Origin: an uncultured beta proteobacterium
Lineage (GTDB): Bacteria > Pseudomonadota > Gammaproteobacteria > Burkholderiales > Gallionellaceae
Reading direction: 5' to 3'
DNA: 64,000 nt
Assembly: GCA_963746105.1 (NCBI GenBank)
Contig: CAVVAD010000002.1
Coordinates: forward strand, 445,047-509,046
Part shown: piece after piece, positions 9,945-47,061 of the stretch
How the letters are laid out: the number at the start of each line of letters is the position of its first letter
Position numbering within the stretch: the stretch's first letter is position 1
The notes under the pieces: model-generated
The model's input: only the letters and a program-made list of their open reading frames with translations
Databases searched by the model: none
Told to the model about the DNA's origin: nothing
Program-made: the position numbers and the translations under genes

Positions 9945-10583
9945 TCAAACGGACTGTTTGCCTTTGCGGTGGCGTATCAATTCGCGCAGCGCGGGCAGCA
10001 GGGAGATCACGATGATGGCGGCGACGATCAGCGTCAGGTTGTTCTTCACCACCGGGATGTTGCCGAAGAAATAGCCGGCCAGCGACAGGCTGGCTATCCA
10101 CAGTGTCCCGCCCAGCGCGCTGAACAGCATAAACAGCCGGTAGCGCATCAGGCCGACACCCGCCACGAAGGGCGCAAAGGTGCGGATGATCGGCAGGAAG
10201 CGCGCGAAGATGATGGTCTTGCCGCCATGCTTCTCGTAAAAGAGGTGGGTCTTCTCCAGATGTTCGCGCTTGATGAATCTGCCTGCACGTTCGAATAAAC
10301 GCAACCCCAGCGTGCGCCCTATCCAGTAATTGGTGTTGTCGCCGCCGAATGCCGCCAGCACCAGCAGCGCTATCAGCCAGTGCAGTTGCAGTGCGCCCAT
10401 GCCGCACAAGGTGCCTGCCACGAACAGCAGCGTGTCGCCGGGCAGGAACGGCGCAATCACCAGGCCGGTTTCGGCAAAGATGATCAGGAACAGGATGGCG
10501 TACACCCACACGCCGTAATCATGCACCAGCGCCAGCAGATGCGTGTCCAGGTGCAAGACGATGTCGTACAGGATCAGGCTCAC
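9945..10583 (-). CDS. dedA: DedA family membrane protein
   Basis: IIFAETGLVIAPFLPGDTLLFVAG, GDNTNYWIG, FARFLPIIRTFAPFVAG. Confidence 0.95.
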   Translation of the reverse strand: MSLILYDIVLHLDTHLLALVHDYGVWVYAILFLIIFAETGLVIAPFLPGDTLLFVAGTLCGMGALQLHWLIALLVLAAFGGDNTNYWIGRTLGLRLFERAGRFIKREHLEKTHLFYEKHGGKTIIFARFLPIIRTFAPFVAGVGLMRYRLFMLFSALGGTLWIASLSLAGYFFGNIPVVKNNLTLIVAAIIVISLLPALRELIRHRKGKQSV

Positions 10584-10627
10584 GGTTTATCCGGGGAAAG
10601 CAAAATGTCGGGGCAAGCTAACCCAGG

Positions 10628-11557
10628 CTACGGAAGGGCTTCCGCCTCGGTCTTCTCCGGCTTGATGAAATCTTCGCGCGACACCCCAAGCAGCATCAGC
10701 AGCGGGCTGGCCACCAGCACCGAAGAGTAAATGCTGAACAGGATCCCGATGGTCAGCGCCATCGCGAAATAGTGCAGTGTCTCGCCGCCGAGGAACAGCA
10801 TCGCCCCGACCATCATCTGGGTGCAACCGTGGGTGATGATGGTGCGCGACATGGTGCGGGTGATGGCGTTGTCGATGATGCGGGAGACTTCGGCCTTGCG
10901 CATGGTGCGGAAATTTTCCCGGATACGGTCGAACACCACCACCGACTCGTTCACCGAATAGCCCAGCACGGCCAGCACCGCGGCCAGCACCGACAGCGAG
11001 AAGTCCCACTGGAAGAAGGCGAAGAAGCCGAGGATGATCACCACGTCATGCAGGTTGGCGATGATCGCGGCCAGGCCGAATTTCCACTCGAAGCGCAGCC
11101 ACAAATAGCCGACGATACCCAGCGACACCAGCAGCAAAGCCAGCTCGCCGTTGTCGACCAGATCCTTGCCGACCTGGGAGCCAACGAATTCGACGCGGCG
11201 CCTTTCCACATCGGGATCCTGTTTGCGCAAGGTGTCCAGCACCTGGTCGCTCAATTTCGCCCCGGAAATATTCTGTTTGGAAGGAACCTGTATCAGCACG
11301 TCGCGGCTGGAACCGAAATTCTGCACCAGCACATCCGGCAGATTCATCCCGGCGAGCTGCGCCCGTATTTTTGAAATGTCCGCCGCTTGCTGGTAATGCA
11401 ATTCGATCACCGTGCCGCCGGTAAAGTCCACGCCGAAATTCAGGCCCCTGGTGGCGAGAAAGAATACCGCGAACAGGAATGTCACCAGCGATATCGAGGT
11501 GGTATACCGCCCATAGCTCATGAACGGGATATCTTTTTTGATCTTGAAGAATTCCAT
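10628..11557 (-). CDS. secF: Protein translocase subunit SecF
   Basis: GLNFGVDFTGG, NLHDVVI, LGYSVNESVVVFDRIRENF. Confidence 0.98.
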   Translation of the reverse strand: MEFFKIKKDIPFMSYGRYTTSISLVTFLFAVFFLATRGLNFGVDFTGGTVIELHYQQAADISKIRAQLAGMNLPDVLVQNFGSSRDVLIQVPSKQNISGAKLSDQVLDTLRKQDPDVERRRVEFVGSQVGKDLVDNGELALLLVSLGIVGYLWLRFEWKFGLAAIIANLHDVVIILGFFAFFQWDFSLSVLAAVLAVLGYSVNESVVVFDRIRENFRTMRKAEVSRIIDNAITRTMSRTIITHGCTQMMVGAMLFLGGETLHYFAMALTIGILFSIYSSVLVASPLLMLLGVSREDFIKPEKTEAEALP

Positions 11558-11810
11558 AGCCGCCTCTAATAATCTACTGCGCAGCCCAATTGCTGCATCA
11601 CATGCTCGTTCAATCCTGAGCGTAGCGGTCGTCGCTCTAGCGACGGGAACCGCACGGCCTGCCCCTTGCGGGTGCGCCTACCTATCAGGTATGTCTCGTC
11701 TTTCACTGATAAAACTCCTAGCCATTCGACTAAGCCCACAAGTGGGCAAGTCGCTGGTTATGCGCGGCTCCTTTCACTTGTGCTGCTCATAACGATTCTT
11801 AGAGCCGTCT
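11558..11810. mobile_element. MITE-like element of 253 bp between secD and secF
   Basis: Imperfect 17-bp terminal inverted repeats (AGCCGCCTCTAATAATC vs reverse complement AGACGGCTCTAAGAATC, 14/17), flanked on both sides by CCAT (11554-11557 and 11811-11814). Confidence 0.6.
11719..11761. repeat. Dispersed hairpin repeat, copy 1 (TAGCCATTC.AC.AAGC-hairpin-CAAGTCGCTGGTTAT)
   Basis: Both termini are shared with the copy at 53178-53226; central CCAC-AA-GTGG hairpin. Confidence 0.75.
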
Positions 11811-11820
11811 CCATCATGTC

Positions 11821-13632
11821 TCAACCGATTGCGACCTTCGCGAGCCGCGCCTTGCGGCCGTAAATCAGATTGACCATCGCGCGCGAGATCAGCACCGCGC
11901 TGAACATCGAGGTCATGATGCCCAGGCACAGCACCACCGCAAACCCCTTGATCGGGCCGGAACCGAACATGAACAGCGCAACCCCGGCGATGAAGGTGGT
12001 GACGTTGGAGTCGAGGATGGTGCCGAACGCCCGGTCATAGCCGGCATGGATCGCCGCCTGCGGCGTGACGCCGTTGCGCAGCTCTTCGCGGATGCGCTCG
12101 TTGATCAGCACGTTCGCGTCGATCGCCATGCCCAGCGTCAGCGCGATGCCTGCCATGCCCGGCAGGGTCAGTGTCGCCTGCAGCAGCGACAGCAGCGCGA
12201 CCAGCAACAGCAGGTTGGCCGCCAGCGCCAGCACGGAAATGACGCCGAACATCAGGTAATACGCGATCATGAATATCGCCACCAGGGTGAAGCCGATCTT
12301 GGTGGAATTGAACCCGCGCGCGATATTCTCCGCCCCCAGGCTGGGGCCGACGGTGCGCTCCTCGATGATCTCCATCGGAGCGGCCAGGGCGCCGGCGCGC
12401 AGCAGCAGCGCGGTATTCTGCGCCTCCATCGAATCCATCGATCCGGTGATCTGCACCCGCCCGCCGCCGATTTCCTCGCGGATAACCGGGGCCGTCACGA
12501 TCTCGCCCTTGCCCTTTTCGAACAGGATGATCGCCATGCGCTTGCCGACGTTTTCGCGGGTTGCATCCTTGAACAGCCTTGCACCCACGCCATCCAGATT
12601 GATATGCACGGCGGCTTCATTGGTGCGGCTGTCGAAACCCGGCTGTGCGTCGCTGATGCGCTCGCCGGTCAGTATCACCTGCTTTTTCACCAGCATCAGG
12701 TTGCCGGAACGATCCTTGAACATGTCGTCGCCGAATGGCGGCGGCGCGCCGGCGACGGCCTGATTCGCCTCGTCCACCATGCGCACTTCCAGCGTCGCGG
12801 TCCGCCCCAGGATATCCTTGGCGCGGGCCGTATCCTGCACCCCGGGAAGCTGGACCACGACGCGGTCCGCACCCTGCTGCTGGATCACCGGCTCGGCCAC
12901 GCCCAGCTCATTGACGCGATTGCGCAAGGTGACCAGATTCTGCTGCACTGCGGACTCCTGGATGCGATGCACGGCCTCGGGCTTGAGTGTCGCCAGCAGC
13001 ACGAATGCGCCGCCATCATCCTTGTCGTTCAGAGTGTAGTCGCCGAATTGCTGGCCGATTTCGGCTTCGCCCTTGCTGCGCGCAGCGGCGTCGCGGAATT
13101 TGACCGTGAGCACGTCGCCGTCGCGGCTGATCCCGGAATAGGGGATGTTCTGCTCGCGCAATCCGCTGCGCATGTCGCTGGCAGCCGCATCCAGCGCCTT
13201 GGTCAGCGCCGCCTGCATGTCCACCTGCAGCAGAAAATGCACGCCTCCGCGCAAATCCAGCCCCAGATACATCGGCAACGCATTCAAACTGGCCAGCCAT
13301 TGCGGCGAACGCGGCAACAGATTGAGGGCCACCACATAATCATCCCCCAGTTGACCGGCCAGCACATCCTTGGCTTTCATCTGGTGATCGGTATCCGCAA
13401 AGCGCGCCTTGACGCTGCCGCCGTCCAGTTCGGTCAGATCGGGGTTGAGGTTGGCCGCCTTGAGTATCGAGTCCACCCGTGCCAGCAGCGCGGCATCAGC
13501 CTTGAGGCCGGTGCGCGCAGGCGATACTTGCACGGCGGGTGATTCGCCGTAAAAATTCGGCAGGGTGTAAATCATCCCCGCCACCAGTACCGCCAGGATC
13601 AGCAGGTTTTTCCACAATGGATATTGGTTCAT
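11821..13632 (-). CDS. secD: Protein translocase subunit SecD
   Basis: Start moved to ATG 13632 (MNQYPLWKN); LGLDLRGGVHF, RNRVNELGVAEP, VGPSLG, GMAIDANVLINERIREE. Confidence 0.98.
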   Translation of the reverse strand: MNQYPLWKNLLILAVLVAGMIYTLPNFYGESPAVQVSPARTGLKADAALLARVDSILKAANLNPDLTELDGGSVKARFADTDHQMKAKDVLAGQLGDDYVVALNLLPRSPQWLASLNALPMYLGLDLRGGVHFLLQVDMQAALTKALDAAASDMRSGLREQNIPYSGISRDGDVLTVKFRDAAARSKGEAEIGQQFGDYTLNDKDDGGAFVLLATLKPEAVHRIQESAVQQNLVTLRNRVNELGVAEPVIQQQGADRVVVQLPGVQDTARAKDILGRTATLEVRMVDEANQAVAGAPPPFGDDMFKDRSGNLMLVKKQVILTGERISDAQPGFDSRTNEAAVHINLDGVGARLFKDATRENVGKRMAIILFEKGKGEIVTAPVIREEIGGGRVQITGSMDSMEAQNTALLLRAGALAAPMEIIEERTVGPSLGAENIARGFNSTKIGFTLVAIFMIAYYLMFGVISVLALAANLLLLVALLSLLQATLTLPGMAGIALTLGMAIDANVLINERIREELRNGVTPQAAIHAGYDRAFGTILDSNVTTFIAGVALFMFGSGPIKGFAVVLCLGIMTSMFSAVLISRAMVNLIYGRKARLAKVAIG

Positions 13633-13716
13633 GACAGCCTCTTGATGACTTGCCGGAGCCAGCCCGGCGCATCCTGCCTGGGCGCATCCGGGCGGACGCA
13701 TCCGGGCGGAAATCGA

Positions 13717-14049
13717 TTACTTGATTGCCTTGATCGTTCCCTTGGGCAACACACTCTGAATCGCGCTCTTCTGCACCATCACGACCAGATTCTCGGCGAT
13801 TTCGACGCCAACGTACTGATCGTAAACCTTGCTGACCGTGCCGACCTCGCCGCCGACTGTCGCCACCTCGTCGCCGCGCTGCAGCGCGGCTATCATCGCC
13901 TTCTGTTCCTTGACGCGGGTCGATTGTGGACGCAGTATCAAAAAATAAAACACCACGATCAACACGAACAGCGGCACAAAACTCATGAGCCCGCTTCCGG
14001 TGGACGCTGCCGCCCCCGCATCTGCATAAGCATTGCTGATAAACATCAT
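13717..14049 (-). CDS. yajC: Preprotein translocase subunit YajC
   Basis: FYFLILRPQ..R.KEQKAMIAALQRGDEVAT.GG. Confidence 0.97.
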   Translation of the reverse strand: MMFISNAYADAGAAASTGSGLMSFVPLFVLIVVFYFLILRPQSTRVKEQKAMIAALQRGDEVATVGGEVGTVSKVYDQYVGVEIAENLVVMVQKSAIQSVLPKGTIKAIK

Positions 14050-14105
14050 TTAATCTCCAGATATGAATCAAAAGGCCGGCATTCTAGCATGATAGCCGCA
14101 GCCGT

Positions 14106-16228
<2,123 letters not shown>

Positions 16229-35596: not shown

Positions 35597-37339
35597 ATGA
35601 AATCAAAATACACAAGGGCATCAAACTGCCCCGCATTCATGATATCCCTGCTGATTTTCATGGGCGACGGGTATGCCGCCGTGGAAACAGCAGACAATGA
35701 AGAATTACGCAACCGGGCCAGGCAGGAAGCACAAGACCGTGAAAAGCAACTGAAATCGCCCAACGTCAATCTGCAAGGCGAAATTCCCGAAGCAGGCATT
35801 TATCAACTCCCCGCAGCAGAAACCCCGTGCTTTACCGTCAATTCTTTCGTGCTGGAAGTGCCCGGCACGCTTTCACCTGCGGCCCGGCGTTACGGGGCAA
35901 GCAAGCTCCCAATGGACACGTTCCGCTTTGCGCGGGATTTTCTGGAGCAATACAAAGGCGAATGCATCGGGCGCGAGGGAATCAATACGATAGTCAAAGG
36001 CGTTACCGCGAAGATTATTGAACGCGGTTATTCGACCACGCGTGTCCGGATTCCGGAGCAGGACCTGCTGAGTGGCACACTCAAGTTGACTTTGGTGCCG
36101 GGGATCATCCATGAGCTGCGATTTGCGGACCCAAAAACTGCAGGAACTTGGAAGAACGCCTTTCCAACATATCCCGGAAAGTTGCTCAACCTGCGCGACC
36201 TTGAACAGGGACTGGAGCAAATGAAGCGCGCAACTAGCCAGGATGTGGATATACAGATCGTTCCCGCCGGAGCACTGGGTGAGAGCGATGTCATTATTTC
36301 AGTAAAACGCACCAAACCCTGGAAGGTGACGGCCAGCCTGGATGACAGCGGGGCAAAAGGCACCGGAAAGACGCAAGCAGTATTGCAAGTCGGATGGGAC
36401 AACCTGCTAGGTATAAATGACTTGCTAAATATCGGTACCAGCACCGATGCGGAACGCAACAACTACATGCGCGGAACATCGGGCAACAATTTTTCCTATT
36501 CGGTACCGCTCGGTTACTGGACTGGCACCCTATCCGCGAGCGAGTACATGTATCACCAGCGCATCATGGGGGCTGTGCAAAGCTTCGTTTACAGCGGCAA
36601 AATGCAAAATATGGAAGCGAAAATAAACTACCTCTTCCATCGCAACCAATTCAGCAAAACTAGCCTGCAATTCCGTACAGCAAAATTCATCAGCCACGCC
36701 TACGTCGACAACACCGAAGTCATGGTGCAAAAGCGCGACATCACATTTGCCGAAATCGCATTGCTGCACAAACACAACATCGGACAGGGGCAAATCGATA
36801 CTACGCTTGCCTATCAGCAGGGGGTGCCATGGTTTGGTGCACAGATTGATCCTGCCGGCCTGAGCGCAACCAGTCCGCACAACCTCTATTCGCTTGAAAC
36901 GCTGGATGTCACGCTGAACGTGCCATTCCGACTTAACGAACGCCTATTCAGCTTCAGTTCCACGTTCAGCGCGCAAAACAGCAACAGCGCACTTTATGCC
37001 ACCCAATGGTTCGCTATCGGCAATCGCTGGACGGTGCGCGGCTTCGATGGCGAATATCCGATGAACGCCGAAAAAGGATTCTTTCTGCGCAACGAGCTCA
37101 GCATACCCATCACCGGTACTGCGCAATCCGCCTACGTTGGCCTCGACTTCGGCAAGGTGTATGGCGACAACACAGCCACGCTGCTGGGCAACAAATTGGC
37201 GGGATTCGTGACCGGACTCAGGGGAAGTCTGATGCAGGACGTGATGTATGAAGTCTTTGCAGGGATGGCGCTATACAAGCCGAAACAATATCCAACCGAC
37301 CAACCCGCTGCAGGCTTTAGTTTGATCTACCAAATTTGA
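35597..37339 (+). CDS. TpsB (ShlB/FhaC/HecB/CdiB) two-partner-secretion transporter
   Basis: POTRA (ERGYSTTRV, LNLRDLEQGLEQMKR), DDSGAKGTGK, IGNRWTVRGFDG VRGF loop, C-terminal barrel. Confidence 0.95.
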   Translation: MKSKYTRASNCPAFMISLLIFMGDGYAAVETADNEELRNRARQEAQDREKQLKSPNVNLQGEIPEAGIYQLPAAETPCFTVNSFVLEVPGTLSPAARRYGASKLPMDTFRFARDFLEQYKGECIGREGINTIVKGVTAKIIERGYSTTRVRIPEQDLLSGTLKLTLVPGIIHELRFADPKTAGTWKNAFPTYPGKLLNLRDLEQGLEQMKRATSQDVDIQIVPAGALGESDVIISVKRTKPWKVTASLDDSGAKGTGKTQAVLQVGWDNLLGINDLLNIGTSTDAERNNYMRGTSGNNFSYSVPLGYWTGTLSASEYMYHQRIMGAVQSFVYSGKMQNMEAKINYLFHRNQFSKTSLQFRTAKFISHAYVDNTEVMVQKRDITFAEIALLHKHNIGQGQIDTTLAYQQGVPWFGAQIDPAGLSATSPHNLYSLETLDVTLNVPFRLNERLFSFSSTFSAQNSNSALYATQWFAIGNRWTVRGFDGEYPMNAEKGFFLRNELSIPITGTAQSAYVGLDFGKVYGDNTATLLGNKLAGFVTGLRGSLMQDVMYEVFAGMALYKPKQYPTDQPAAGFSLIYQI

Positions 37340-37366: not shown

Positions 37367-39901
37367 ATGAAAACAGAGAGGTCACCTATGAGCACAGGTA
37401 ATCAAGCGAATATTGAACAGAACCTGAACAGCAATACGCTGGTTCGGCAGTCGCGCTTGCGTCGCGTGGTTGCCCGGCTCACCTTCGTTGCCTATATCGG
37501 ACAACCGATGATCGTCACCGCACAGGTTATTGCCGACCAGGCGGCCGCTGCAAACAAACGTCCCGTTATCGACACCACCGCCAACGGAATACCTCTGGTA
37601 CAGATCGCCACACCCAATGTAGCGAGCCTCTCGCACAACCAATATACCCAATTCAACGTCGACCCTGCCGGGCTGATACTCAACAACAGCCCGACGGCCG
37701 TTCTCACCCAACAAGCGGGCTTTGTAGCGGGAAATCAGAATTTGGCCAACGGCGCTGCCCGTATCATTCTTAACGAAGTGACCAGCACCAGCCGCAGTCA
37801 ACTGAATGGCTACCTCGAAGTGGCAGGATCGCAAGCCGAAGTCATGGTTGCCAATCCCAATGGAATTACTTGCAACGGCTGTGGCTTTATCAATACCAGC
37901 CGTGGCGTGCTTGCTACCGGTACGCCCGTCCTGGGTACGAGCGGTAATCTTGACTCACTTCGTGTGACGGGGGGAGACATTCAGATCGGTGCGGCGGGAT
38001 TGAATGCAGGCAATATCAGTCAGCTCGACCTCATTGCGCGCAGCGTCCAGGTCAACAGCCAACTCTGGGCGAACAATTTAAACGTCATTACTGGTGCGAA
38101 CCTCGTCAACTACAACAACCTGGGCGTGCAGATTATTGCGGGCGACGCCAACAAACCCATTGTCGGCATCGACATTGCCTTGCTTGGCGGCATGTACGCT
38201 AACAAGATTCGCCTCATTGGTACCGAAACCGGTGTGGGAGTGAACAGTCTGGGCACACTCGCTGCTCAAGTGGGCGACTTTACGCTAAATAACCAAGGGC
38301 AGATCACTTTGGGCGGTAGCACCACAGCCAGCGGCAATATCAGCGTTTACAGCAACACCGGCATCACCAACACGGGCACTATTGCTAGCCAGCAAACAAC
38401 CCAACTTACCAGCATCGGCCATATTCTAAATGGCACGGGTGCCACCCTAAATGCAGGCAATACCGTGTTGAACGCCGTCACGGGCGACATCACCAACAAC
38501 GGTTACATCTATGGCAACCAGATCAACACGCAGAGCAACAATTTCTACAACAACTATTCGATCATCGGAAACGTCGTCAATCTGACTGCGAACAATCTTT
38601 ACAACACCGGCGGCACGGCATTCATCGGCGCGACACAAACGGCTAATCTGGTTGTCGCCAATGCACTTGCGAATACAGGCGGGGCAGATATCAACAGTTT
38701 GAACGACATCAATATCGGTTCCGACGTTACCGTACAAGCCAACGGATATCTGACCGGCAATGCGGTCAGCGTACTGAATCAATCCTCTACTATTGAAGCT
38801 ACGGGTAACTTGCGATTTGCGGCCAACACCGTTAACAACCAGCGCACCGTGGTGGGACTGGAGTATGCTCCGTCGTGGACGGGTACACCCGTTGTCAACA
38901 CACCGGTAGTCGGCGGGTCCACTGTATATAGCTACACTCCGACTTACGCCGATCAACAATTCACCGCCACAACTACCCCTGCTGCCCAACTTTTGTCCGG
39001 TGCCAACATGTGGATTGGCGGCAGTACACTGAATAACAACTACAGTTCCATTATCGCGGGCGGAACATTGACCGCGCAAATGGCGATTAACAATTATGGA
39101 CCCCAGTTCTTGAAAAGCGAGACCTGGTCCGGGACATCCAGTGTCTGGGTGTCGACATATCACCCTCAGCAAGGCAGTTGCGGTTGGATAAGCGTGGGTT
39201 GTGTTAATGCTTATGTCTCCTGGGCGCTCGTCACTACGCCTTACTTGTCTACACAGATCCCCACCCCGATATCGGGCCTAAATTACACCAATCAGAATAG
39301 TTCGCCATCCGCATATCTTGCAGCCAAAAGCAATTCGACGGTCGCGCTTCCCACCAGCAGTCTGTACTCCATACATCCGCAGCCGGGTCAGCCATATCTG
39401 GTGGTCACCGACCCGCGTTTCGCCAACTACGCCAATTTCATATCCAGCAACTACATGTTGAGCCGCCTGTCGCTGGATCCGCAGCAAATGCAATTGCGTT
39501 TGGGGGATGGTTTCTATGAACAGCAACTGGTGACGCAACAGGTTACCGCCTACACGGGTCTCATCTATCTGGGCGGATACACCGATGCCGAGTCGCAATT
39601 CATTGCGCTGATGAATTCAGGGATAGATGCGGCGAAAGATTTCAATCTCACCGTCGGTGTGGCTCTGACCACTGAACAGATCAACTCTCTTAAGCATGAC
39701 ATTGTCTGGATGGTAAATCGCAGCGTGACTTTGCCGAACGGGACGACCGAACACGTTCTGGCCCCGCAGGTCTATTTGTCCAGCGTGCAGGAGGCAGACC
39801 TCAAAACGAGCGGCGCATTGATCTCGGCGAATGTGACCAACATCAACGCGCAACGTCAACAACAGCGGCACCATCCGCGCCGACACTGCGCTCTCGATTA
39901 A
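37367..39901 (+). CDS. TpsA N-terminal fragment: TPS secretion domain, FHA-1 repeats and YP-like region
   Basis: SHNQYTQFNV, ARIILNEVTS, NPNGITCNGCGFIN, GGMYANKIRLI, YLVVTDPRF...LRLGDGFYEQQLV. Confidence 0.9.
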   Translation: MKTERSPMSTGNQANIEQNLNSNTLVRQSRLRRVVARLTFVAYIGQPMIVTAQVIADQAAAANKRPVIDTTANGIPLVQIATPNVASLSHNQYTQFNVDPAGLILNNSPTAVLTQQAGFVAGNQNLANGAARIILNEVTSTSRSQLNGYLEVAGSQAEVMVANPNGITCNGCGFINTSRGVLATGTPVLGTSGNLDSLRVTGGDIQIGAAGLNAGNISQLDLIARSVQVNSQLWANNLNVITGANLVNYNNLGVQIIAGDANKPIVGIDIALLGGMYANKIRLIGTETGVGVNSLGTLAAQVGDFTLNNQGQITLGGSTTASGNISVYSNTGITNTGTIASQQTTQLTSIGHILNGTGATLNAGNTVLNAVTGDITNNGYIYGNQINTQSNNFYNNYSIIGNVVNLTANNLYNTGGTAFIGATQTANLVVANALANTGGADINSLNDINIGSDVTVQANGYLTGNAVSVLNQSSTIEATGNLRFAANTVNNQRTVVGLEYAPSWTGTPVVNTPVVGGSTVYSYTPTYADQQFTATTTPAAQLLSGANMWIGGSTLNNNYSSIIAGGTLTAQMAINNYGPQFLKSETWSGTSSVWVSTYHPQQGSCGWISVGCVNAYVSWALVTTPYLSTQIPTPISGLNYTNQNSSPSAYLAAKSNSTVALPTSSLYSIHPQPGQPYLVVTDPRFANYANFISSNYMLSRLSLDPQQMQLRLGDGFYEQQLVTQQVTAYTGLIYLGGYTDAESQFIALMNSGIDAAKDFNLTVGVALTTEQINSLKHDIVWMVNRSVTLPNGTTEHVLAPQVYLSSVQEADLKTSGALISANVTNINAQRQQQRHHPRRHCALD

Positions 39902-42196
39902 TGCGGACGACATCACCAATCAGGGCGGTACAATCAGCAGCGGTGGCAGCAACACACTGGTAGCCGGCAACGACATCCTCAATCTGTCCGGCAACATCAG
40001 CGGTGCGGATGTCAGCCTGACCGCCGGACGTGACATTGGCAACGCACTTACCGGCCAGTCGGTTAACCGCACGTTCGCCAACGGCACCGTGAACGGTACC
40101 GATCTTAGTACGGCAGCCGGTATCAATGCCACCAATTCGCTGAGCATGAATGCCGGGCGAGACGTCTCTATCATGGCCGCGGCGGTCAATGTGGGCGGCG
40201 ATGCCACGATCAACGCAGGGCGTAACCTGACCGTCGGGGTACTCACAGCCACCAATTCTGCAACCGCAAATCAAAATGCAGTGTATCGTACCGATGTCAC
40301 CCAACTGACCAGCAATATCCAGGCTGGGGGTAACCTCAACCTTGCCTCCGGCAGCGACATGCACCTGACATCTGCGGCACTTGGCGCCGGCAAAGACGCG
40401 GTGCTGGTGTCGGGCGGCGACCTGACCATCGATGCCAGCAAGAACGGCACCGCCTCCGGTTACAACACCGGTTCGGCGACAGGGCGCTTCAACGACGAAA
40501 CCGTACTCGGTTCCACACTGAAGGCAGGCGGCAATGTCACCCTGGTCGCCACACAGCTGAATGCAGGCGGTGCGACACAAGGTGGCGATGGAGGCAGCAC
40601 CGCCGGGCGCAGCGACGGCAAGGGCAACATTAGCCTGCAAAGCACCGACATCACCAGCAAGACCGGCACGCTCACGGTTGCTGCGGATGCCAACGTCAAC
40701 ATCGGCACGGCAGCAGAGCATCACGATGCTTACACCGAGTCGCATGCGACCGGAAGCAGTCTGTTCACAAACACCACACTCGATGTGCGTAACCAAAGCA
40801 GCCGCACCGGCAACATCGGCAGCAACCTGAGTGCCGACAGCATCAGTATCACCAGCGGCAAGAACATCGACGTTGTCGGCAGCACCGCCAGCGCCGAGCA
40901 CGACATCAACGTGGCCGCGATGGGTGATGTCAATCTCTCTGCGGCTACCAACACCTATAGCTCGGACCACTACAGCCACGAGACCACCACCGGCCTGCAA
41001 TTCAGTGGTGGCAACCCATTCAGCATCACCGACATGGGTCCCGACATCACCAGCAAGGCCCATACCGACGGCACCCGGCAAAGCTTCAGCCGCAGCAGTT
41101 TCACCAGCAATAGCGGCAATCTGAGCGTCATGGCCGGCCGCAAACTCATCGCCGGCGGTACCGACCTGGCCGCCAATGCCGGCGACCTTGCATTAACCGC
41201 AGGCGGAACCGTCGCCCTGCTGGCTGGCCAGGACACGCTGTAACCGAAACAGCAGCACCGTCACGGTCACCAATCCCAATTTCTTCACCAAGCAGCGCCA
41301 TACCATCACGGACACCTATATCAGCCTCGACTACCATGGGAGCACAGCACGAGGCAGCAATGTCAATATCAACAGCGGAGCCAACATCGTTCTCCAGGTA
41401 GCTCAAATCGCTTCGGGAGAAGAAAAGTTTCTTGGATCGGGCTCAGGAACAATGTCAACCTTTCCCGGTACTGGCATCGACCTGGCGCCGGGGGCGACAT
41501 CCAACTGCTTGCAGCCGCAATAGCGCCAGCAGCAAGCGTCAGGAAACGCTGCAAACCGACGGTGCGCTGCTTCAGAACAACGGATGGATCGATTACTTTT
41601 CCGACCGCCGAAAAAACAACCAGGTCGAAAACCAGAACGGACTACCCAGGTCACCAGCCTTGTCAGCGCAGGGAAGTTCGCCGCCCACTCTGGTGGAGAT
41701 ATCCTGATCGAGGCCAGCACATTGAGATGCCCAAGGATCGATAGATCTTTCGCCGGCAGCTCCCGAACCATAGTCAGGACAGTCACGCTTGGGCAAACCC
41801 CTTTTGGTCAGGCACAGGATAGCTACGATGGCAAAATTACCTTCACACGGCAATGGATAGTATCTACACCAGTGTTGCCGACAGCGGCAACTCCCTTTCC
41901 TGGCAAGGCCAGGACAGCCACGGCAGCTATAGTGAGACCATCAAGCTTGCCAATGTCAGACAGGCCAAATGCTGGACGTCTATGCCGCTGGAGGTATGGT
42001 CATCAATATCCCGGAGTTGGCCGTCGCACCCCTCCCACGTCGCAAATCTATGCACACGGAAACATTGCAAACCCAGTACCCCTGACCGCAGAACGCTAAC
42101 AAAGCAACGCCAGGCCGATCTTGAGCTTCATCTCCAGAATCTCGCCAGTCAACCCGGACAGGAATGGATTGGTCAACTCGCGCATGATCCCGGCTG

Positions 42197-43273
42197 ATGG
42201 TGCAACTTCAACAGGTGGCAGCCAAAGCCCAACACTGGGATTACTCGCACGACGGATTGACCCCGGAAGCAGCTGCGGTGATCGTCATCGTCGTGACCTA
42301 TCTCAGTGCTGGCACAGCCGGCAGCGCGGCAGGCACCATGACGGGTGTGGCCGCAGGCACCACTACCGTGACTTCTGCCGCCGTTGCAGCGGGCATCACT
42401 ACGCTGACCAGTCAAGCGGCTGTCGCATTCTTCAACAACAAAGGCGACATCGGCGAAACATTGAACGACATGGGCAAGAGCGAAAACGTGCGCAACACCA
42501 TTGCTGCGATGATCACCGCCGGCGTGACCCAGGATTATTTAAGAAAATACAATCTGGAAAGTTATGCTGCGAAAGCACTGACCGGCTGCGTCACCGGCGA
42601 CATGGCTGGAAACGGCTGTCAGCATGGCGCGACCACTGCGGCTGTCATGGCTGGATCGACATGGGCAAATGATGCAATGCGAACTGCTATGGTCGATGAT
42701 TCGAAAACATTCACGGGAGTTACAGATGCTAATGATCCATCCGGAAAAATGTTTAACAACACCACTGGTGGTGGGAGTGCAGGAATTGATGGTGATGGCT
42801 TACGAGTTGCAGGAACACGCATCAACATCAAAGGGCTGCAAGAATTTGGCACCATGACTCCAGTAACACCCAACAACCCCAATACTCTTTGGATGTTCGC
42901 AGGAAATACCAATCCGGCAACCGGACAACCCTTTTCCTTGACCGAAGCACTCGCCGCGCAAGGCGGGTTCACGGGCGGAACGCAGGCGCTATTACCGACC
43001 TTTGCCGGAATGCCCGTATCGCCCGGCAGATTCCTGGACAAGCTGCAGGAATCATTTGCCGGCCCGCATGATTACTTGGGTGGAGTCATAGAGGGCGGTT
43101 ATGACAATCTGGGCAACTGGAAGGCGACCAGCGACACCGCCGACTATATCCGGGGTTTCATGGCAGACATCAATATCCCGCTGGCAATCCCGCTGGCGAT
43201 TCCCACTTTGTTACAGCAGATCAACTTCGACCCGGTGGCAATGAGCAACACAATCCATAACGAGACCGATTGA
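42197..43273 (+). CDS. Intact C-terminal module: DUF637-like region plus uncharacterised C-terminal (putative toxin) domain
   Basis: WDYSHDGLTPEAAAVIVIVVT...LTSQAAVAFFNNKGDIGETLNDMG (DUF637-like), followed by GGFTGG...SPGRFLDKLQESFAGPHDYLGG...YDNLGN. Confidence 0.7.
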   Translation: MVQLQQVAAKAQHWDYSHDGLTPEAAAVIVIVVTYLSAGTAGSAAGTMTGVAAGTTTVTSAAVAAGITTLTSQAAVAFFNNKGDIGETLNDMGKSENVRNTIAAMITAGVTQDYLRKYNLESYAAKALTGCVTGDMAGNGCQHGATTAAVMAGSTWANDAMRTAMVDDSKTFTGVTDANDPSGKMFNNTTGGGSAGIDGDGLRVAGTRINIKGLQEFGTMTPVTPNNPNTLWMFAGNTNPATGQPFSLTEALAAQGGFTGGTQALLPTFAGMPVSPGRFLDKLQESFAGPHDYLGGVIEGGYDNLGNWKATSDTADYIRGFMADINIPLAIPLAIPTLLQQINFDPVAMSNTIHNETD

Positions 43274-43923
43274 ACATGGACCGGCATTTGATCCGCAGGG
43301 ATCTCACAGCCCTGGCAACCATCATGCTGTTGGTCGCATGCCAGACGATACCAAAGTGGGACAAGGAGACGATTGATAACCCGATTGAAGATGGCCGTTG
43401 CCCAGATTTGTCAGGCCGATTCAATTATGAACATCTTGGCGCAAAAGACACCAGAGGAATGGATTCGATACTTGGTGAGAACCTAACTAGCGAACTACCG
43501 GCAAATCAAATCGACAGGCGAACGTATAAGGCCACCACGGAGCCATCTACCTCAAAATATATAAGGGTAGATTCTTCGATGCCTATCCAGGGCACAGTAA
43601 TTGTCTCGCTAACACGTTTAGACAAGATTGGACGAAAGTATCATGTCAGGGTTGATTGGGATAAGGAAGGATTGCTCGGGGAATACGATATTGCATTCGA
43701 TCAAACGTGGATTTGTTCCGGAGATAAACTTATCCGGTCGGTGAAGAGTACACTACACGAGAGACCCAATCCCGATGAAATCGATCCCAGGGACTATCGC
43801 AGGATTTACCTGTTGCCGAACGGCAATATCCGGGTAGACAGAAAACACAATTACATATACATGCGGAATCAGAATCATTTCGTAAGATATTACGAAAGCC
43901 GGGTGTTTGCTCGAGTGCCGTGA
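43270..43923 (+). CDS. Predicted lipoprotein, candidate immunity protein
   Basis: Lipobox LLVAC after a hydrophobic stretch; TTGA overlap with the upstream stop; markedly AT-richer. Confidence 0.65.
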   Translation: MNMDRHLIRRDLTALATIMLLVACQTIPKWDKETIDNPIEDGRCPDLSGRFNYEHLGAKDTRGMDSILGENLTSELPANQIDRRTYKATTEPSTSKYIRVDSSMPIQGTVIVSLTRLDKIGRKYHVRVDWDKEGLLGEYDIAFDQTWICSGDKLIRSVKSTLHERPNPDEIDPRDYRRIYLLPNGNIRVDRKHNYIYMRNQNHFVRYYESRVFARVP

Positions 43924-43973: not shown

Positions 43974-44552
43974 TTATTTGGCAAACCACCCATCCCAGTT
44001 CGGATAGTTCGGGATGTTCACGGTATCCGCGTCATACACACCCTGCGCGGCCTGGGTGTGGCACTTGTCGCAGAAGCTCAGCGATTTCACGCCCTTGTTG
44101 CCCTTGATCATTTTCTCGGGAATGACATGGTGCTTGCGCGAGATATACAGCAGCTCGGTGATGCGCAGCGGAGCCGGGCCGGTCTCGGTGGCCACGGCGA
44201 TCTTGCGCGAACGCTTGTACCAGGATTTGTCCGCGGCATTGTCCACCGCGTAGTCGTGTATCTCTTTCAGCGTGTCGTCGTCGAGCTCGGCATTGGAACC
44301 GAAATGCTTGCGCAATGCATTATTGTTCAGCAGCGCGTCCCATGATCTTGCCGGCAACAGGCCGGGCTGATAGGGGAAGTGGCATCCGCCGCATTCTTCC
44401 AGATAGGCTTTGTTGGTAACCGGTTTGACCCCTTTTTGCCGATTGAAATTCAGCAGCCAGCCCTCAAAACTTTCTGCGGCGGCTGCATAAGCGCTATTCA
44501 ATACCAGCGCTGCGGCAAGCAGGGCGGCGATTTTCAATTTCCTTTGCATCAT
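43974..44552 (-). CDS. Diheme cytochrome c (DHC family), copy 2
   Basis: Signal peptide; EECGGCHFPYQPGLLPARSW and FCDKCHT. Confidence 0.92.
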   Translation of the reverse strand: MMQRKLKIAALLAAALVLNSAYAAAAESFEGWLLNFNRQKGVKPVTNKAYLEECGGCHFPYQPGLLPARSWDALLNNNALRKHFGSNAELDDDTLKEIHDYAVDNAADKSWYKRSRKIAVATETGPAPLRITELLYISRKHHVIPEKMIKGNKGVKSLSFCDKCHTQAAQGVYDADTVNIPNYPNWDGWFAK

Positions 44553-44563
44553 CTCTCCCCCCG

Positions 44564-45241
44564 CTACCAGGTCAACTTGATGGCCACAACCATGGCCACC
44601 GCGCCCAGCTCTGCGTAACCCGCGTGGCTGGTTGGCACCGAGGAATGCATGGACTTGTCGATTGCATACAGCATCAGCAGCGCGCCGGTGCCGGCCAGTG
44701 CCACGTGCTGGTTATCCGGGTCGGCAAAGCCGTCGCCCAGATGAAAGTCGTCCCAGTGATACAGCAGTCCAGTGATCACCGTGGCGATGGCCATCGCGCC
44801 GGTGGCGCGAGCCAGCCTGGTGTGGGCGGTGCCGGATGTCTGCCTGGGCGGTTGCTGCGATGCCGGTAGGCAATTCTCTTCGCAACTGCTCGGCGCGGCC
44901 AGCGCGGTGAGTCCGGCCAGCACGACGGTACCCAAGCCAAGATATTCATGCGCCTTTCTGCCGGTTAACCACGCCGGCTGGAATTGCTCGGCGGGGTCGA
45001 CAAATGTATCGCCGGCCTGCCCTTGCGCCGCCGCGCCGTCATTCGCCGCGATCAGGTAGCCTTTGGGATTGGCCCGCCGCGCATCCGATGGCCGATCTTT
45101 CAGGAGCGGGTCATTGGCGGTATAGAAATTCGCCGCCGCTGTCGGCAGCTGAAAATTCGCAGTTGTCTCGTCCGCATACGCCAAACCCGATAAAACCGCC
45201 AGCAATACGCCGGCGGCAACATGGTTACGCCTGTGCTTCAT
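44564..45241 (-). CDS. Exported-N-terminus membrane protein with four His-bearing helices (possible b-type cytochrome)
   Basis: Signal peptide; KAHEYLG, TAHTRLA, NQHVALA and TSHAGYA each open a hydrophobic helix. Confidence 0.65.
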   Translation of the reverse strand: MKHRRNHVAAGVLLAVLSGLAYADETTANFQLPTAAANFYTANDPLLKDRPSDARRANPKGYLIAANDGAAAQGQAGDTFVDPAEQFQPAWLTGRKAHEYLGLGTVVLAGLTALAAPSSCEENCLPASQQPPRQTSGTAHTRLARATGAMAIATVITGLLYHWDDFHLGDGFADPDNQHVALAGTGALLMLYAIDKSMHSSVPTSHAGYAELGAVAMVVAIKLTW

Positions 45242-45311
45242 TCATTACCCCTGACCATTGACTAAAATTCTGACTCGGCGGATGCGCGGCCTGTCGCGCC
45301 AGCTGGCGCCC

Positions 45312-45932
45312 TCATCCAAGCGGCTTCTTGACATAGGCGAACCAGAATACTGCCACCGCGATCACCATCAGCGCACCCAGCCAGGCATAAGGACGCTGGA
45401 TGCTTTTTTCTGTCCCGGCAGATTTGAATCCGGTAATCATCGATCGCACCAGATTTTCACGGTGCAGGATGCTGCTCATCAGCACGCCGGCCAGGTGCAG
45501 CGCTATCACGCCCAGCATCACGTTGGTTCCAAGCCCATGCAGATCGACCACAAAGTCGCTCGCGTCATCCTGGAGTGCCAGCACGCCGGTCACGCTGACG
45601 AATAAACCCAGCGCCAGCAGCAGCCAGACCGACACGCTCCCCGCCGGGTTGTGCCCGAGATAATGCGCGGGCTTGCGTTTGAGCATGGTTGACAGATAAA
45701 CGACGGTCTCCCTGGGATTGAACAGGAACGAGCTGAACCGCGCATAGCGTGTGCCGATAAACCCCCACAGCAACCTGAACACCAGCAGGCCCAGCAGGAT
45801 ATAGCCGAGCGCCACATGATAATTGCGCAAGCGTTCCGAAAATGCGGTCAGGTAGGCCACGCTGAAAGACGCGGCCTGCAGCCAGTGAAAAACCCGTGTG
45901 GGCACATCCCAAACCAGAATGCGTCTATTCAT
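45312..45932 (-). CDS. Cytochrome b (Ni/Fe-hydrogenase cyt b / b561-like)
   Basis: VWDVPTRVFHW, HVALGY, RYARFSSF, LGHNPAG, LHLAGV...HRENLVRSMITG. Confidence 0.95.
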   Translation of the reverse strand: MNRRILVWDVPTRVFHWLQAASFSVAYLTAFSERLRNYHVALGYILLGLLVFRLLWGFIGTRYARFSSFLFNPRETVVYLSTMLKRKPAHYLGHNPAGSVSVWLLLALGLFVSVTGVLALQDDASDFVVDLHGLGTNVMLGVIALHLAGVLMSSILHRENLVRSMITGFKSAGTEKSIQRPYAWLGALMVIAVAVFWFAYVKKPLG

Positions 45933-45944
45933 GCTCTGCTCTCC

Positions 45945-46439
45945 CTATCTGGGGATTTTTACATTGTCTTCGCTGTAATCGCCGCTATCCGCTGTGGTAT
46001 GACAAGCGCCGCAATTGGACCGGCTCTTGACCCTGGGATTTTTCCAGTGGCGGGCAGCCACTTCGCGGTGCTCGGACTTGAACCAGCGGGTTTCGGTGAT
46101 GCGCAGCAACGGTTTGTCCGTTGGCCTGTGTTTCCGGGTATCGGCATTCTTTTCCAGAAATTCCGATATCTCCCTGGCGGAAGCGGCATCCAGACTCGCA
46201 TCGCTGCCGAAATGCTTGTCCAGCCCCGACATGATCGCGCGCCAGGATTCGGCAGGAAGCATACCGGGCGGATAGGCAACGTGGCAGGCGCCGCATTCGC
46301 TCTTCCACTTGGCATTGTTGATATTGTATTTGTAGTCATCATCATCATCGTCGTCAGCGTATGCGATAGACACTGCGGTAACCGCCAACAATGCTGCAAC
46401 AGCAAATAGACGGGTCAATTTTGCGGTATCGATTTTCAA
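45945..46439 (-). CDS. Diheme cytochrome c (DHC family), copy 1
   Basis: SECGACHVAYPPGMLPAESW, KHFGSDASLD, RITETRWF..EH, SNCGACHT. Confidence 0.95.
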   Translation of the reverse strand: MKIDTAKLTRLFAVAALLAVTAVSIAYADDDDDDDYKYNINNAKWKSECGACHVAYPPGMLPAESWRAIMSGLDKHFGSDASLDAASAREISEFLEKNADTRKHRPTDKPLLRITETRWFKSEHREVAARHWKNPRVKSRSNCGACHTTADSGDYSEDNVKIPR

Positions 46440-46448
46440 GACCGCCCC

Positions 46449-46868
46449 CTAGCTTTTGGGTACGCTGAGCAGATAAGTCAGCACATCCCCTTTTTCCTGG
46501 GGGGTGCATTCCCGGTCCAGCACATCGTTGCAATTGCGCTTGAACCACTTCGCCACTTTTTTCATGTCGGTGAATCTTTCCGGGTTGGCGGCCGGGGCAA
46601 GCGGCTTGATCAGCTTGTCGGTCTCGGCGTGCTTGCCCTGCGCGGCGGGATTGTCGGTATGGCAGGAGGAACAGCTCAGATCGTGGTTATGCTTGGTCTT
46701 GAAGAAGCTTTCCCCGTGGGCAGCCGAGAATCCCTGGAAACCCGGCGTGGCCGACGCCTCGGTTTTTATGGCCGCCAGCACTTCGACCGGCGTTTCCGCG
46801 TACGCGGTGTCCATCAGCAGCCCGCTGGCCGCAACAAGCAAACCAAATACAGAAAATACGCGCAACAT
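46449..46868 (-). CDS. SHP-type (DUF1924) monoheme cytochrome c
   Basis: SCSSCHT, PLAPAANPERFTD..KVAKWFKRNCNDVLDRECT...KGDVL. Confidence 0.92.
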   Translation of the reverse strand: MLRVFSVFGLLVAASGLLMDTAYAETPVEVLAAIKTEASATPGFQGFSAAHGESFFKTKHNHDLSCSSCHTDNPAAQGKHAETDKLIKPLAPAANPERFTDMKKVAKWFKRNCNDVLDRECTPQEKGDVLTYLLSVPKS

Positions 46869-47061
46869 CACTTCCCCCCTGAATAGCGAAGTATCGTTGA
46901 GTTGTTTAAAAATTGGAAGTTCACACATGAATTTAATGTTATCTCACACACATTTTTGCAGCGCTGTGTTAAGCGCCCTTTCGGACCAGCGGCCCGAACT
47001 CGCGCAGGGAACCGCTAAAGCCGGTTGAGCATCGCATGGCGGATGGTAGAATCTGCCCCAT

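Follow-up and report, generated by a model that had tools for sequence, protein, structure and literature searches.

A two-partner-secretion locus of an uncultured Gallionellaceae bacterium carries a candidate envelope-acting toxin tip with a putative immunity lipoprotein

The stretch of DNA analysed here (the window) comprises 64,000 nucleotides from an uncultured beta proteobacterium of the family Gallionellaceae (GenBank assembly GCA_963746105.1, contig CAVVAD010000002.1, positions 445,047 to 509,046), and on its forward strand it holds a run of three genes, tpsB, tpsA and a lipoprotein gene, that likely encodes a two-partner-secretion (TPS) weapon of the contact-dependent growth inhibition (CDI) type. 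As we read the sequence comparisons, the C-terminal tip of the exoprotein TpsA would be an envelope-acting toxin of an undescribed family, and the lipoprotein encoded directly behind it the corresponding immunity protein. We consider about evenly balanced the fuller proposal that this tip family combines type Vb (T5b)/CDI delivery and a fold absent from the PDB with an enzymatic action in the periplasm, or on a membrane-bound component of the envelope, and with neutralization by the lipoprotein. What is new here is the tip family, its predicted fold and the putative envelope-side immunity, while the CDI-type system itself is known; in the literature on CDI toxins with lipoprotein or periplasmic immunity we found no description of this tip family. 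Judged by its relatives, the pair in the window is one divergent branch of a widespread module and not a one-off.

At the locus an Omp85-type TpsB lies beside an exoprotein with an N-terminal TPS domain and hemagglutinin repeats. The parts are as follows (positions are those of the window; aa, amino acids; E, expectation value):

35597..37339, + strand: TpsB/CdiB-type outer-membrane transporter, 580 aa (Pfam ShlB E 2.3e-94, POTRA_3 E 2.5e-23, POTRA_2 E 2.9e-16).
37367..43273, + strand: TpsA/CdiA-like exoprotein gene of about 1,970 codons, read in pieces in this assembly (from stop-to-stop frames, tblastn and a three-frame reading).
37367..39901, + strand: first frame piece of tpsA, 844 aa, with signal region, TPS secretion domain (aa 52-315) and then repeat shaft (Pfam TPS E 1.2e-52; TIGR01901 E 4.5e-23).
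39837..41240, + strand: second frame piece of tpsA, 468 aa, with hemagglutinin repeats of the FHA-2 type (Pfam Fil_haemagg_2 E 6.6e-17).
41241..42196, + strand: frameshift-dense stretch of tpsA, coding for the region just N-terminal to DUF637 (from alignment to the metagenomic homologue P0214).
42197..43273, + strand: last in-frame piece of tpsA, 358 aa, the open reading frame (ORF) reported by the original prediction (ORF listing, stop-to-stop translation).
42380..42541, + strand: DUF637 match, first third of the Pfam profile only (PF04830 E 3.8e-16, residues 62-115 against profile positions 1-54 of 168).
42605..43216, + strand: core of the unnamed C-terminal domain family (HMMER family matches spanning about query residues 22-225).
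43037..43072, + strand: most conserved motif of the tip, D166-x3-E170-x3-G174-x-H176-D177 (LDKLQESFAGPHD), from the family alignment.
43157..43213, + strand: hydrophobic, proline-rich C-terminal helix of the tip (INIPLAIPLAIPTLLQQIN; Kyte-Doolittle 1.62 over 19 residues), within modelled helix 198-226.
43270..43923, + strand: candidate immunity lipoprotein, 215 aa from ATG 43276, alternative start TTG 43270 (lipobox LVAC, Cys22).

The original prediction, made from the letters alone, had described an intact DUF637-like ORF followed by an uncharacterized C-terminal domain. The 358-aa frame at 42197-43273 is indeed present in the ORF listing and its DUF637 match is real, scoring 59.8 bits against a Pfam gathering cut-off of 26.6, but it covers only the first third of the profile, and the gene cannot be called intact beyond its last 1.07 kb, being broken by about 11 frame changes. 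The frame is the tail of the broken TpsA and not a separate gene, and the ATG at 42197 is an internal Met. The features that had been pointed out within it, namely the stretch GGFTGG...FAGPHDYLGG...YDNLGN and a hydrophobic tail (INIPLAIPLAIPTLL), are there as described.

With the last 243 residues of the 358-aa piece as query, HMMER returned in an exhaustive search 169 clusters (50% identity) at E<=1e-3, with 65 of these at E<=1e-10, and the matches end at or near the C-terminus of the matched proteins. All eight long members that were scanned are TpsA proteins, six with ESPR, TPS domain and hemagglutinin repeats and two with repeats only. The same tip domain is preceded by two types of upstream region, the DUF637 type seen in the window and a commoner helical type (‘...ERVMNVLIGAV...MIEDSKKF’), and it also occurs in orphan cassettes (L014, L039, L005 and L002, where L marks a homologous locus), as would be expected of an exchangeable tip. 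In scans of Pfam, NCBIfam and PHROGs with the window's tip, 25 close members, 21 diverse members and 8 members of the other branch there was no match to the tip, only to upstream DUF637, TPS and repeat regions. Sequence searches of the PDB with single tip sequences and with profiles were likewise negative. The Foldseek comparison that had been proposed as a check gave no significant match for the tip model in either the PDB or BFVD, with no E better than 5.3. The tip thus stays outside every characterized family in these databases, as had been suspected.

The second check that had been suggested, a survey of the genes downstream of homologous C-termini, came out in favor of a lipoprotein partner. 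With the window's own tip as query no confirmed relative was obtained among species-representative genomes, and the window-type tip is rare (1 weak match in 150 representative genomes of the family). The survey was a pattern scan of species-representative genomes with a pattern taken from an alignment of the commoner branch. It yielded 57 loci, 54 of them with a readable downstream ORF, from Betaproteobacteria (Methylotenera, Sideroxydans, Polaromonas, Limnohabitans, Thauera, Vogesella, Herbaspirillum, Cupriavidus, Neisseriaceae and others) and beyond (Pasteurellaceae, Methylophaga and a zetaproteobacterial metagenome-assembled genome, or MAG). In 46 of the 54 loci (85%) the next ORF encodes a lipoprotein-like protein of 106-186 aa, a filter that only 1.4% of the ORFs in the window's genome pass, and in 40 of these 46 it starts 3 bases before the end of the TpsA stop codon, that is, with a 4-base overlap. 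All but one of 45 survey partners belong to one family with three invariant cysteines, whose likeness to the window's lipoprotein is confined by hhalign to the signal peptide; both lipoprotein families possess two invariant cysteines besides the lipid-attachment Cys. Overall, the sub-branches of the tip have as partners no fewer than three or four lipoprotein families unrelated to one another. At L039 the order is tip, lipoprotein, a 75-aa tip fragment and a paralogous lipoprotein.

Some loci typical of Betaproteobacteria turned up in MAGs labelled Aggregatilineales, Bifidobacterium, Synechococcus or Klebsiella (L055 / L056, L057, L058, L069, L070, L074 and L082). The downstream lipoprotein ORFs of L055 (Burkholderiales) and L056 (Aggregatilineales) share the same N-terminal sequence over the first 45 aa, and the oddly labelled loci look like mis-binned contigs in public MAGs.

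The lipoprotein gene of the window overlaps tpsA as had been reported: the possible start codon TTG at 43270 shares bases with the TpsA stop (TTGA), an ATG follows at 43276, 3 bases past the stop, and at the homologous locus L016 the tip and lipoprotein genes overlap by 4 bases (1707 vs 1710). The encoded signal (MDRHLIRRDLTALATIMLLVAC) has a standard lipobox, LVAC, with Cys22 as the lipid-attachment residue and Q at +2, and on the strength of that Gln the protein is probably anchored in the outer membrane. The gene is also AT-rich as claimed, with 47.1% G+C against 53.1% for the C-terminal domain and 58.7% for the genome; the lower G+C of tip and lipoprotein is a hint of a mobile cassette. 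We found 55 homologues of the lipoprotein, none with a Pfam family. Cys22 is nearly invariant (at least 90% of 51 homologues) and C42 and C147 are invariant; the protein probably carries one disulfide.

Wherever the context could be read, the lipoprotein family of the window stands directly after this subtype of tip or after its 3' remnant. Complete tips are followed by lipoproteins at L014 (71% identity for the tip, 69% for the lipoprotein) and at L016 (65% and 55%, respectively). At L002-L004 a 55-aa remnant of the tip end lies directly before the lipoprotein gene (59% identity), with a ParE toxin-antitoxin pair adjoining, and at L005 a 38-aa remnant occupies the same place in front of three tandem lipoprotein paralogues. 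In Cupriavidus (L017) a tip with 42% identity is followed by 213-aa lipoproteins whose likeness to the window family is only marginal (23% identity, BLAST E 0.017 to 0.027; hhalign E 0.0025, probability 12%). At L014 the window-type pair is an orphan cassette within an array that also contains a DUF637+CDI_toxin_EC869_like protein followed by CdiI.

Related loci hold several further arrangements. The L014 array (10208-16206) continues beyond the DUF637+CDI_toxin_EC869_like/CdiI pair with a 444-aa DUF6862-type piece and ORFs of 157, 89 and 260 aa, which may represent additional uncharacterized tip/immunity pairs. A shorter related tip (‘...AGLHDW...PALSVALPAAL’) is found at L005 (1-1318) and L014 (1136-7299), followed by lipoproteins of 121-126 aa that share ‘LxNGN...YFYEY(D/E)P’, and this combination may be a third tip/lipoprotein sub-branch. 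At L040 (4359-6820) and L041 (4933-6615) an orphan tip of the window's subtype (62% identity) lies downstream of an IS200-type transposase gene, and at L040 it is followed by an IS110-family transposase gene. Finally, in Cupriavidus necator (CP017757; L038, 5001-7520) the TPS domain of an 839-aa TpsA is joined almost directly to this tip family, with a 108-aa lipoprotein fragment, two 213-aa lipoprotein paralogues and IS66 genes downstream; this short TpsA would make a compact natural construct for experiments.

Conservation of the tip was assessed with 115 non-redundant members, numbering residues along the segment encoded by 42542-43270. Six positions are invariant (S54, G91, R93, G145, H176 and D177), and R47, N73, S79, Q148, D166, E170, G174, Y187, G191 and N192 are conserved in at least 90% of the members. 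Within the D-E-G-H-D motif, H176 and D177 reach 100%, E170 98% and D166 97%, and the motif is also invariant in 21 diverse members with less than 45% mutual identity. The hydrophobic tail with its ...P-F-A... signature is kept across the family, with P217 in 89%, and 103 out of 123 family members possess exactly two cysteines, both in one loop. An AlphaFold2 model of the tip computed from 25 sequences is fairly confident (predicted local distance difference test, pLDDT, 81; predicted template modelling score, pTM, 0.77) and shows a mixed helix/strand structure with two long N-terminal helices, a strand-rich insert, the helix bearing the D-E-G-H-D motif and a long hydrophobic C-terminal helix (residues 198-226, in pLDDT blocks of about 81-89). 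D166, E170, H176 and D177 all fall on the single predicted helix 164-183, and the later helices lack conserved polar residues. The near-invariance of S54, R93, Q148, D166, E170, H176, D177 and Y187 suggests an enzyme, and most likely the tip is one that uses these residues. Although speculative, the hydrophobic tail points to a membrane-associated substrate, and our guess would be a membrane lipid or a lipid-linked cell-wall precursor.

Taken together, the C-terminal position of the domain on TpsA, its exchange behind different upstream regions, its coupled and fast-diverging partner, and the orphan fragments and remnant cassettes carry the signature of a polymorphic toxin-immunity module, while the lipid anchoring of all partners and the conserved cysteine pairs in tip and partners argue for an interaction outside the cytoplasm. 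The earlier proposal of a polymorphic TPS toxin tip with lipoprotein immunity and an envelope target is thereby supported by the occurrence of the family in TpsA proteins, its lack of matches to anything described, the downstream lipoproteins, the co-inheritance and the cysteine pairs. In the mechanism that we infer, including its toxicity, compartment, enzymatic nature and neutralization by binding, TpsB would export the filamentous TpsA, whose C-terminal part would wait in the periplasm of the producer and cross the outer membrane of a neighbor upon contact, by analogy with CdiA. The last ~200 residues would form the toxin tip, a predicted enzyme, whose site of action is probably the periplasm or the periplasmic side of a membrane, with the aid of its hydrophobic C-terminal helix; entry into the cytoplasm would not be needed. 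The translationally coupled lipoprotein, facing the periplasm, would be the putative cognate immunity protein, binding the tip and blocking it in the producer as well as upon delivery from a sister cell. Since the C-terminal half of CdiA is modelled as being held in the producer's periplasm before delivery (PMC9086364, PMC11630599), a tip active in the periplasm would need just such a periplasmic antidote.

When its three frames were compared with the template, tpsA showed in this assembly about 11 single-base frame changes, of which one lies near 39850 and about ten fall within the 0.95 kb of 41241-42196. Same-genus relatives possess intact TpsA open frames of 2081 aa (G164) and 2064 aa, and the first frame piece of the window's tpsA is 58% identical to the G164 protein over residues 90-935. 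When the G164 and G177 TpsA proteins and P0214 were placed on the window by tblastn, collinear pieces of one TpsA protein fell in alternating frames, and over 41241-42196 the P0214 alignment jumps among all three frames with similarity retained. A few of the changes lie in homopolymer runs (G5 at 41489-41493 and C4 at about 42075) and most lie outside such runs. For a base rate we sampled a complete same-genus genome in 20 evenly spaced regions of 20 kb, mapped the 360 long ORFs taken from them to the window's genome (2 contigs, 2.6 Mb, 95.9% completeness), and found frame junctions in 22 of 118 non-overlapping conserved genes (19%), or 0.18 per kb. The frameshifted genes retain 50-94% aa identity to the relative, some of them 83-94%, and the junctions cluster, with 4 packed into 0.8 kb (C2:621.4-622.1 kb) and another 5 spread over about 4.4 kb (C2:1009-1014 kb). 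Junction sites in the genome include C1:490512, C1:1261115 and, for these two clusters, C2:621426-622138 and C2:1009198-1013614. This genome-wide pattern fits residual indel errors of a long-read assembly; as the assembly appears to contain many of them, reads are needed before any gene of this genome is called a ‘pseudogene’. With 22 of 118 conserved genes in the rest of the genome frameshifted too, the changes in tpsA are probably assembly errors and the apparent decay of the gene an artefact; whether this copy is functional depends on whether the roughly 11 changes are errors, as is likely, or real.

Were they real, tpsA would be a decaying pseudogene whose toxin is no longer exported, and the lipoprotein, perhaps together with the tip frame, would be kept, for instance as protection against neighbors that fire this toxin. 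Such a history would account for the packing of 10 of the about 11 changes into 0.95 kb, a local density about 57x the genome mean of 0.18 per kb, for the several changes that avoid homopolymers and for the clean frames of tip and lipoprotein; we nevertheless regard it as unlikely, given that the clustered frameshifts in other conserved genes are the signature of an error-prone long-read assembly and that amino acid similarity is kept in every piece of tpsA. The two remaining alternatives concern what the tip does. That it is a non-enzymatic toxin which damages the inner or outer membrane directly, forming a pore or inserting like a detergent through its hydrophobic C-terminal helix while the lipoprotein blocks the insertion, seems improbable to us: the hydrophobic character of the tail is conserved across the family and CDI ionophores are a known class (PMC11630599), but the tip has a single and borderline hydrophobic segment (Kyte-Doolittle 1.62), the known CDI ionophores differ in being five-helix bundles paired with small membrane immunity proteins of two helices (PMC11630599), and the near-invariant S, R, Q, D, E, H, D and Y, set in a mixed helix/strand fold, have the look of catalytic residues. 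Improbable as well, in our view, is a non-toxic C-terminal module of one TpsA lineage with a role in periplasmic retention, in maturation or in anchoring at the surface, comparable to the FhaB prodomain, with the lipoprotein as an accessory factor akin to BcpO. The restriction of the domain to TpsA proteins speaks for it, as does the fact that BcpO of the Burkholderia bcpAIOB CDI loci is a lipoprotein whose activity is unknown (PMC9086364). What it would leave unexplained are the hallmarks of toxin-immunity turnover, that is, orphan tip fragments with lipoprotein genes of their own, tandem divergent paralogues and remnant-plus-lipoprotein cassettes beside a ParE pair, as well as the pairing of tip sub-branches with three or four unrelated lipoprotein families at the least.

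Several observations weigh against a CDI-type toxin with envelope-side immunity. There is no single open frame for tpsA in this assembly. Many polymorphic toxin tips occur on several delivery systems, and this one was seen on TpsA only, not on Rhs, type VI secretion system (T6SS) or other carriers. The 358-aa piece has no Pfam match to PT-VENN and no VENN, ELYN/NxxLYN or WVHN motif, and [VIL][ED]NN lies within the last 450 aa of just 2 of 37 long family members, so that with no known pretoxin motif the cleavage and delivery step cannot be mapped. The branch of the window is also without the loop cysteines, and hence without the loop disulfide that characterizes 84% of the family, and two more residues of its tip deviate from the consensus of the family (P for G152 and V for Y159). 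Lastly, the AlphaFold2 model of the lipoprotein is poor (pLDDT 54), which makes its Foldseek matches meaningless and gives no fold support for a binding role.

On the opposite (-) strand directly downstream of the locus, 43974-46928 holds two dihaem cytochrome c genes (PF09626), an unassigned 225-aa ORF, a cytochrome b561 gene (PF01292) and a gene for a DUF1924 protein, with hrcA-like and chaperone-sized ORFs beyond.

Characterized CDI toxins are almost all nucleases or inner-membrane ionophores, which must cross or enter the cytoplasmic membrane (PMC9086364, PMC11630599). If our reading is correct, CDI has an envelope-targeting arm comparable to the periplasmic effectors of the T6SS, without need for VENN cleavage or an inner-membrane entry receptor, and a large, conserved, VENN-less tip family with lipoprotein antidotes would add the periplasm as an end-point of delivery, and with it, probably, an enzymatic activity and a fold that are both new. 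Betaproteobacteria of fresh water and soil, among them iron oxidisers, methylotrophs and Cupriavidus, commonly carry the family, which is present also in Pasteurellaceae and Neisseriaceae. It offers an experimental handle in its seven or eight invariant residues, in the small size of the presumed cognate partners and in several pairs that would be non-cognate to one another.

Among enzymes of known type, three candidates were considered for the tip and set aside. A serine hydrolase or lipase of the GxSxG (Tle-like) type was suggested by G77-G-S79-A-G81, with S79 92% conserved; this loop is deleted in some members, it lies in coil in a model that is not an alpha/beta-hydrolase, and there is no Pfam hydrolase match. 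The colicin M family, which cleaves lipid II, carries the motif DxYDx5HR, acts in the periplasm and is countered by an exported immunity protein. The spacing of acid and His in the tip (E170-x5-H176) is loosely alike, but the motif matches only in part and Foldseek returned no significant PDB match. Lipocone tips are helical, with lipid head groups as their predicted targets, and every one of them is paired with a transmembrane or lipoprotein immunity protein (PMC12419801). Their hallmark is a four-helix cone with His on H2, Glu on H3 and Asp on H4 lining an aperture (PMC12419801), whereas D, E, H and D of the present tip are all on one helix instead of three, again with no significant Foldseek match in the PDB; type V secretion system (T5SS) carriers are not listed in the Lipocone paper (Burroughs, Nicastro, Aravind 2025; PMC12419801).

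The ionophores of the CT-EC93 family (CT, C-terminal region) resemble our proposal in being CDI tips that act on the membrane and not on nucleic acids. They consist of a five-helix bundle with an entry domain and are matched by two-helix membrane immunity proteins of 72-100 aa (PMC11630599). An identity with them was rejected on the grounds that the tip is modelled as mixed helix/strand with one hydrophobic segment and enzyme-like invariant residues, and that its partner is a 215-aa lipoprotein.

With the E. coli-type CDI systems (cdiBAI of EC93, EC869 and UPEC536) the locus shares its order of transporter, TPS/FHA-repeat (filamentous hemagglutinin) exoprotein, variable tip and small, tightly coupled gene, and orphan tip/immunity cassettes are found in related loci, in one case next to an EC869-like CT/CdiI pair. 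It differs from them in that the window's tip has no VENN pretoxin motif and no match to a characterized nuclease or ionophore domain, and in that its partner is a lipoprotein in place of a cytoplasmic or integral-membrane CdiI, with a site of action that we place provisionally in the periplasm or envelope. In this last respect parallels are offered by the T6SS periplasmic effectors (Tle/Tli, Tae/Tai) and TelC/TipC, which follow the logic of periplasmic or lipoprotein immunity (PMC12419801). Delivery in the window would be by T5b, and no likeness to these effectors in sequence or fold was detected; what the putative pair would have in common with them is an envelope-directed toxin whose immunity protein is exported or lipid-anchored and neutralizes it outside the cytoplasm.

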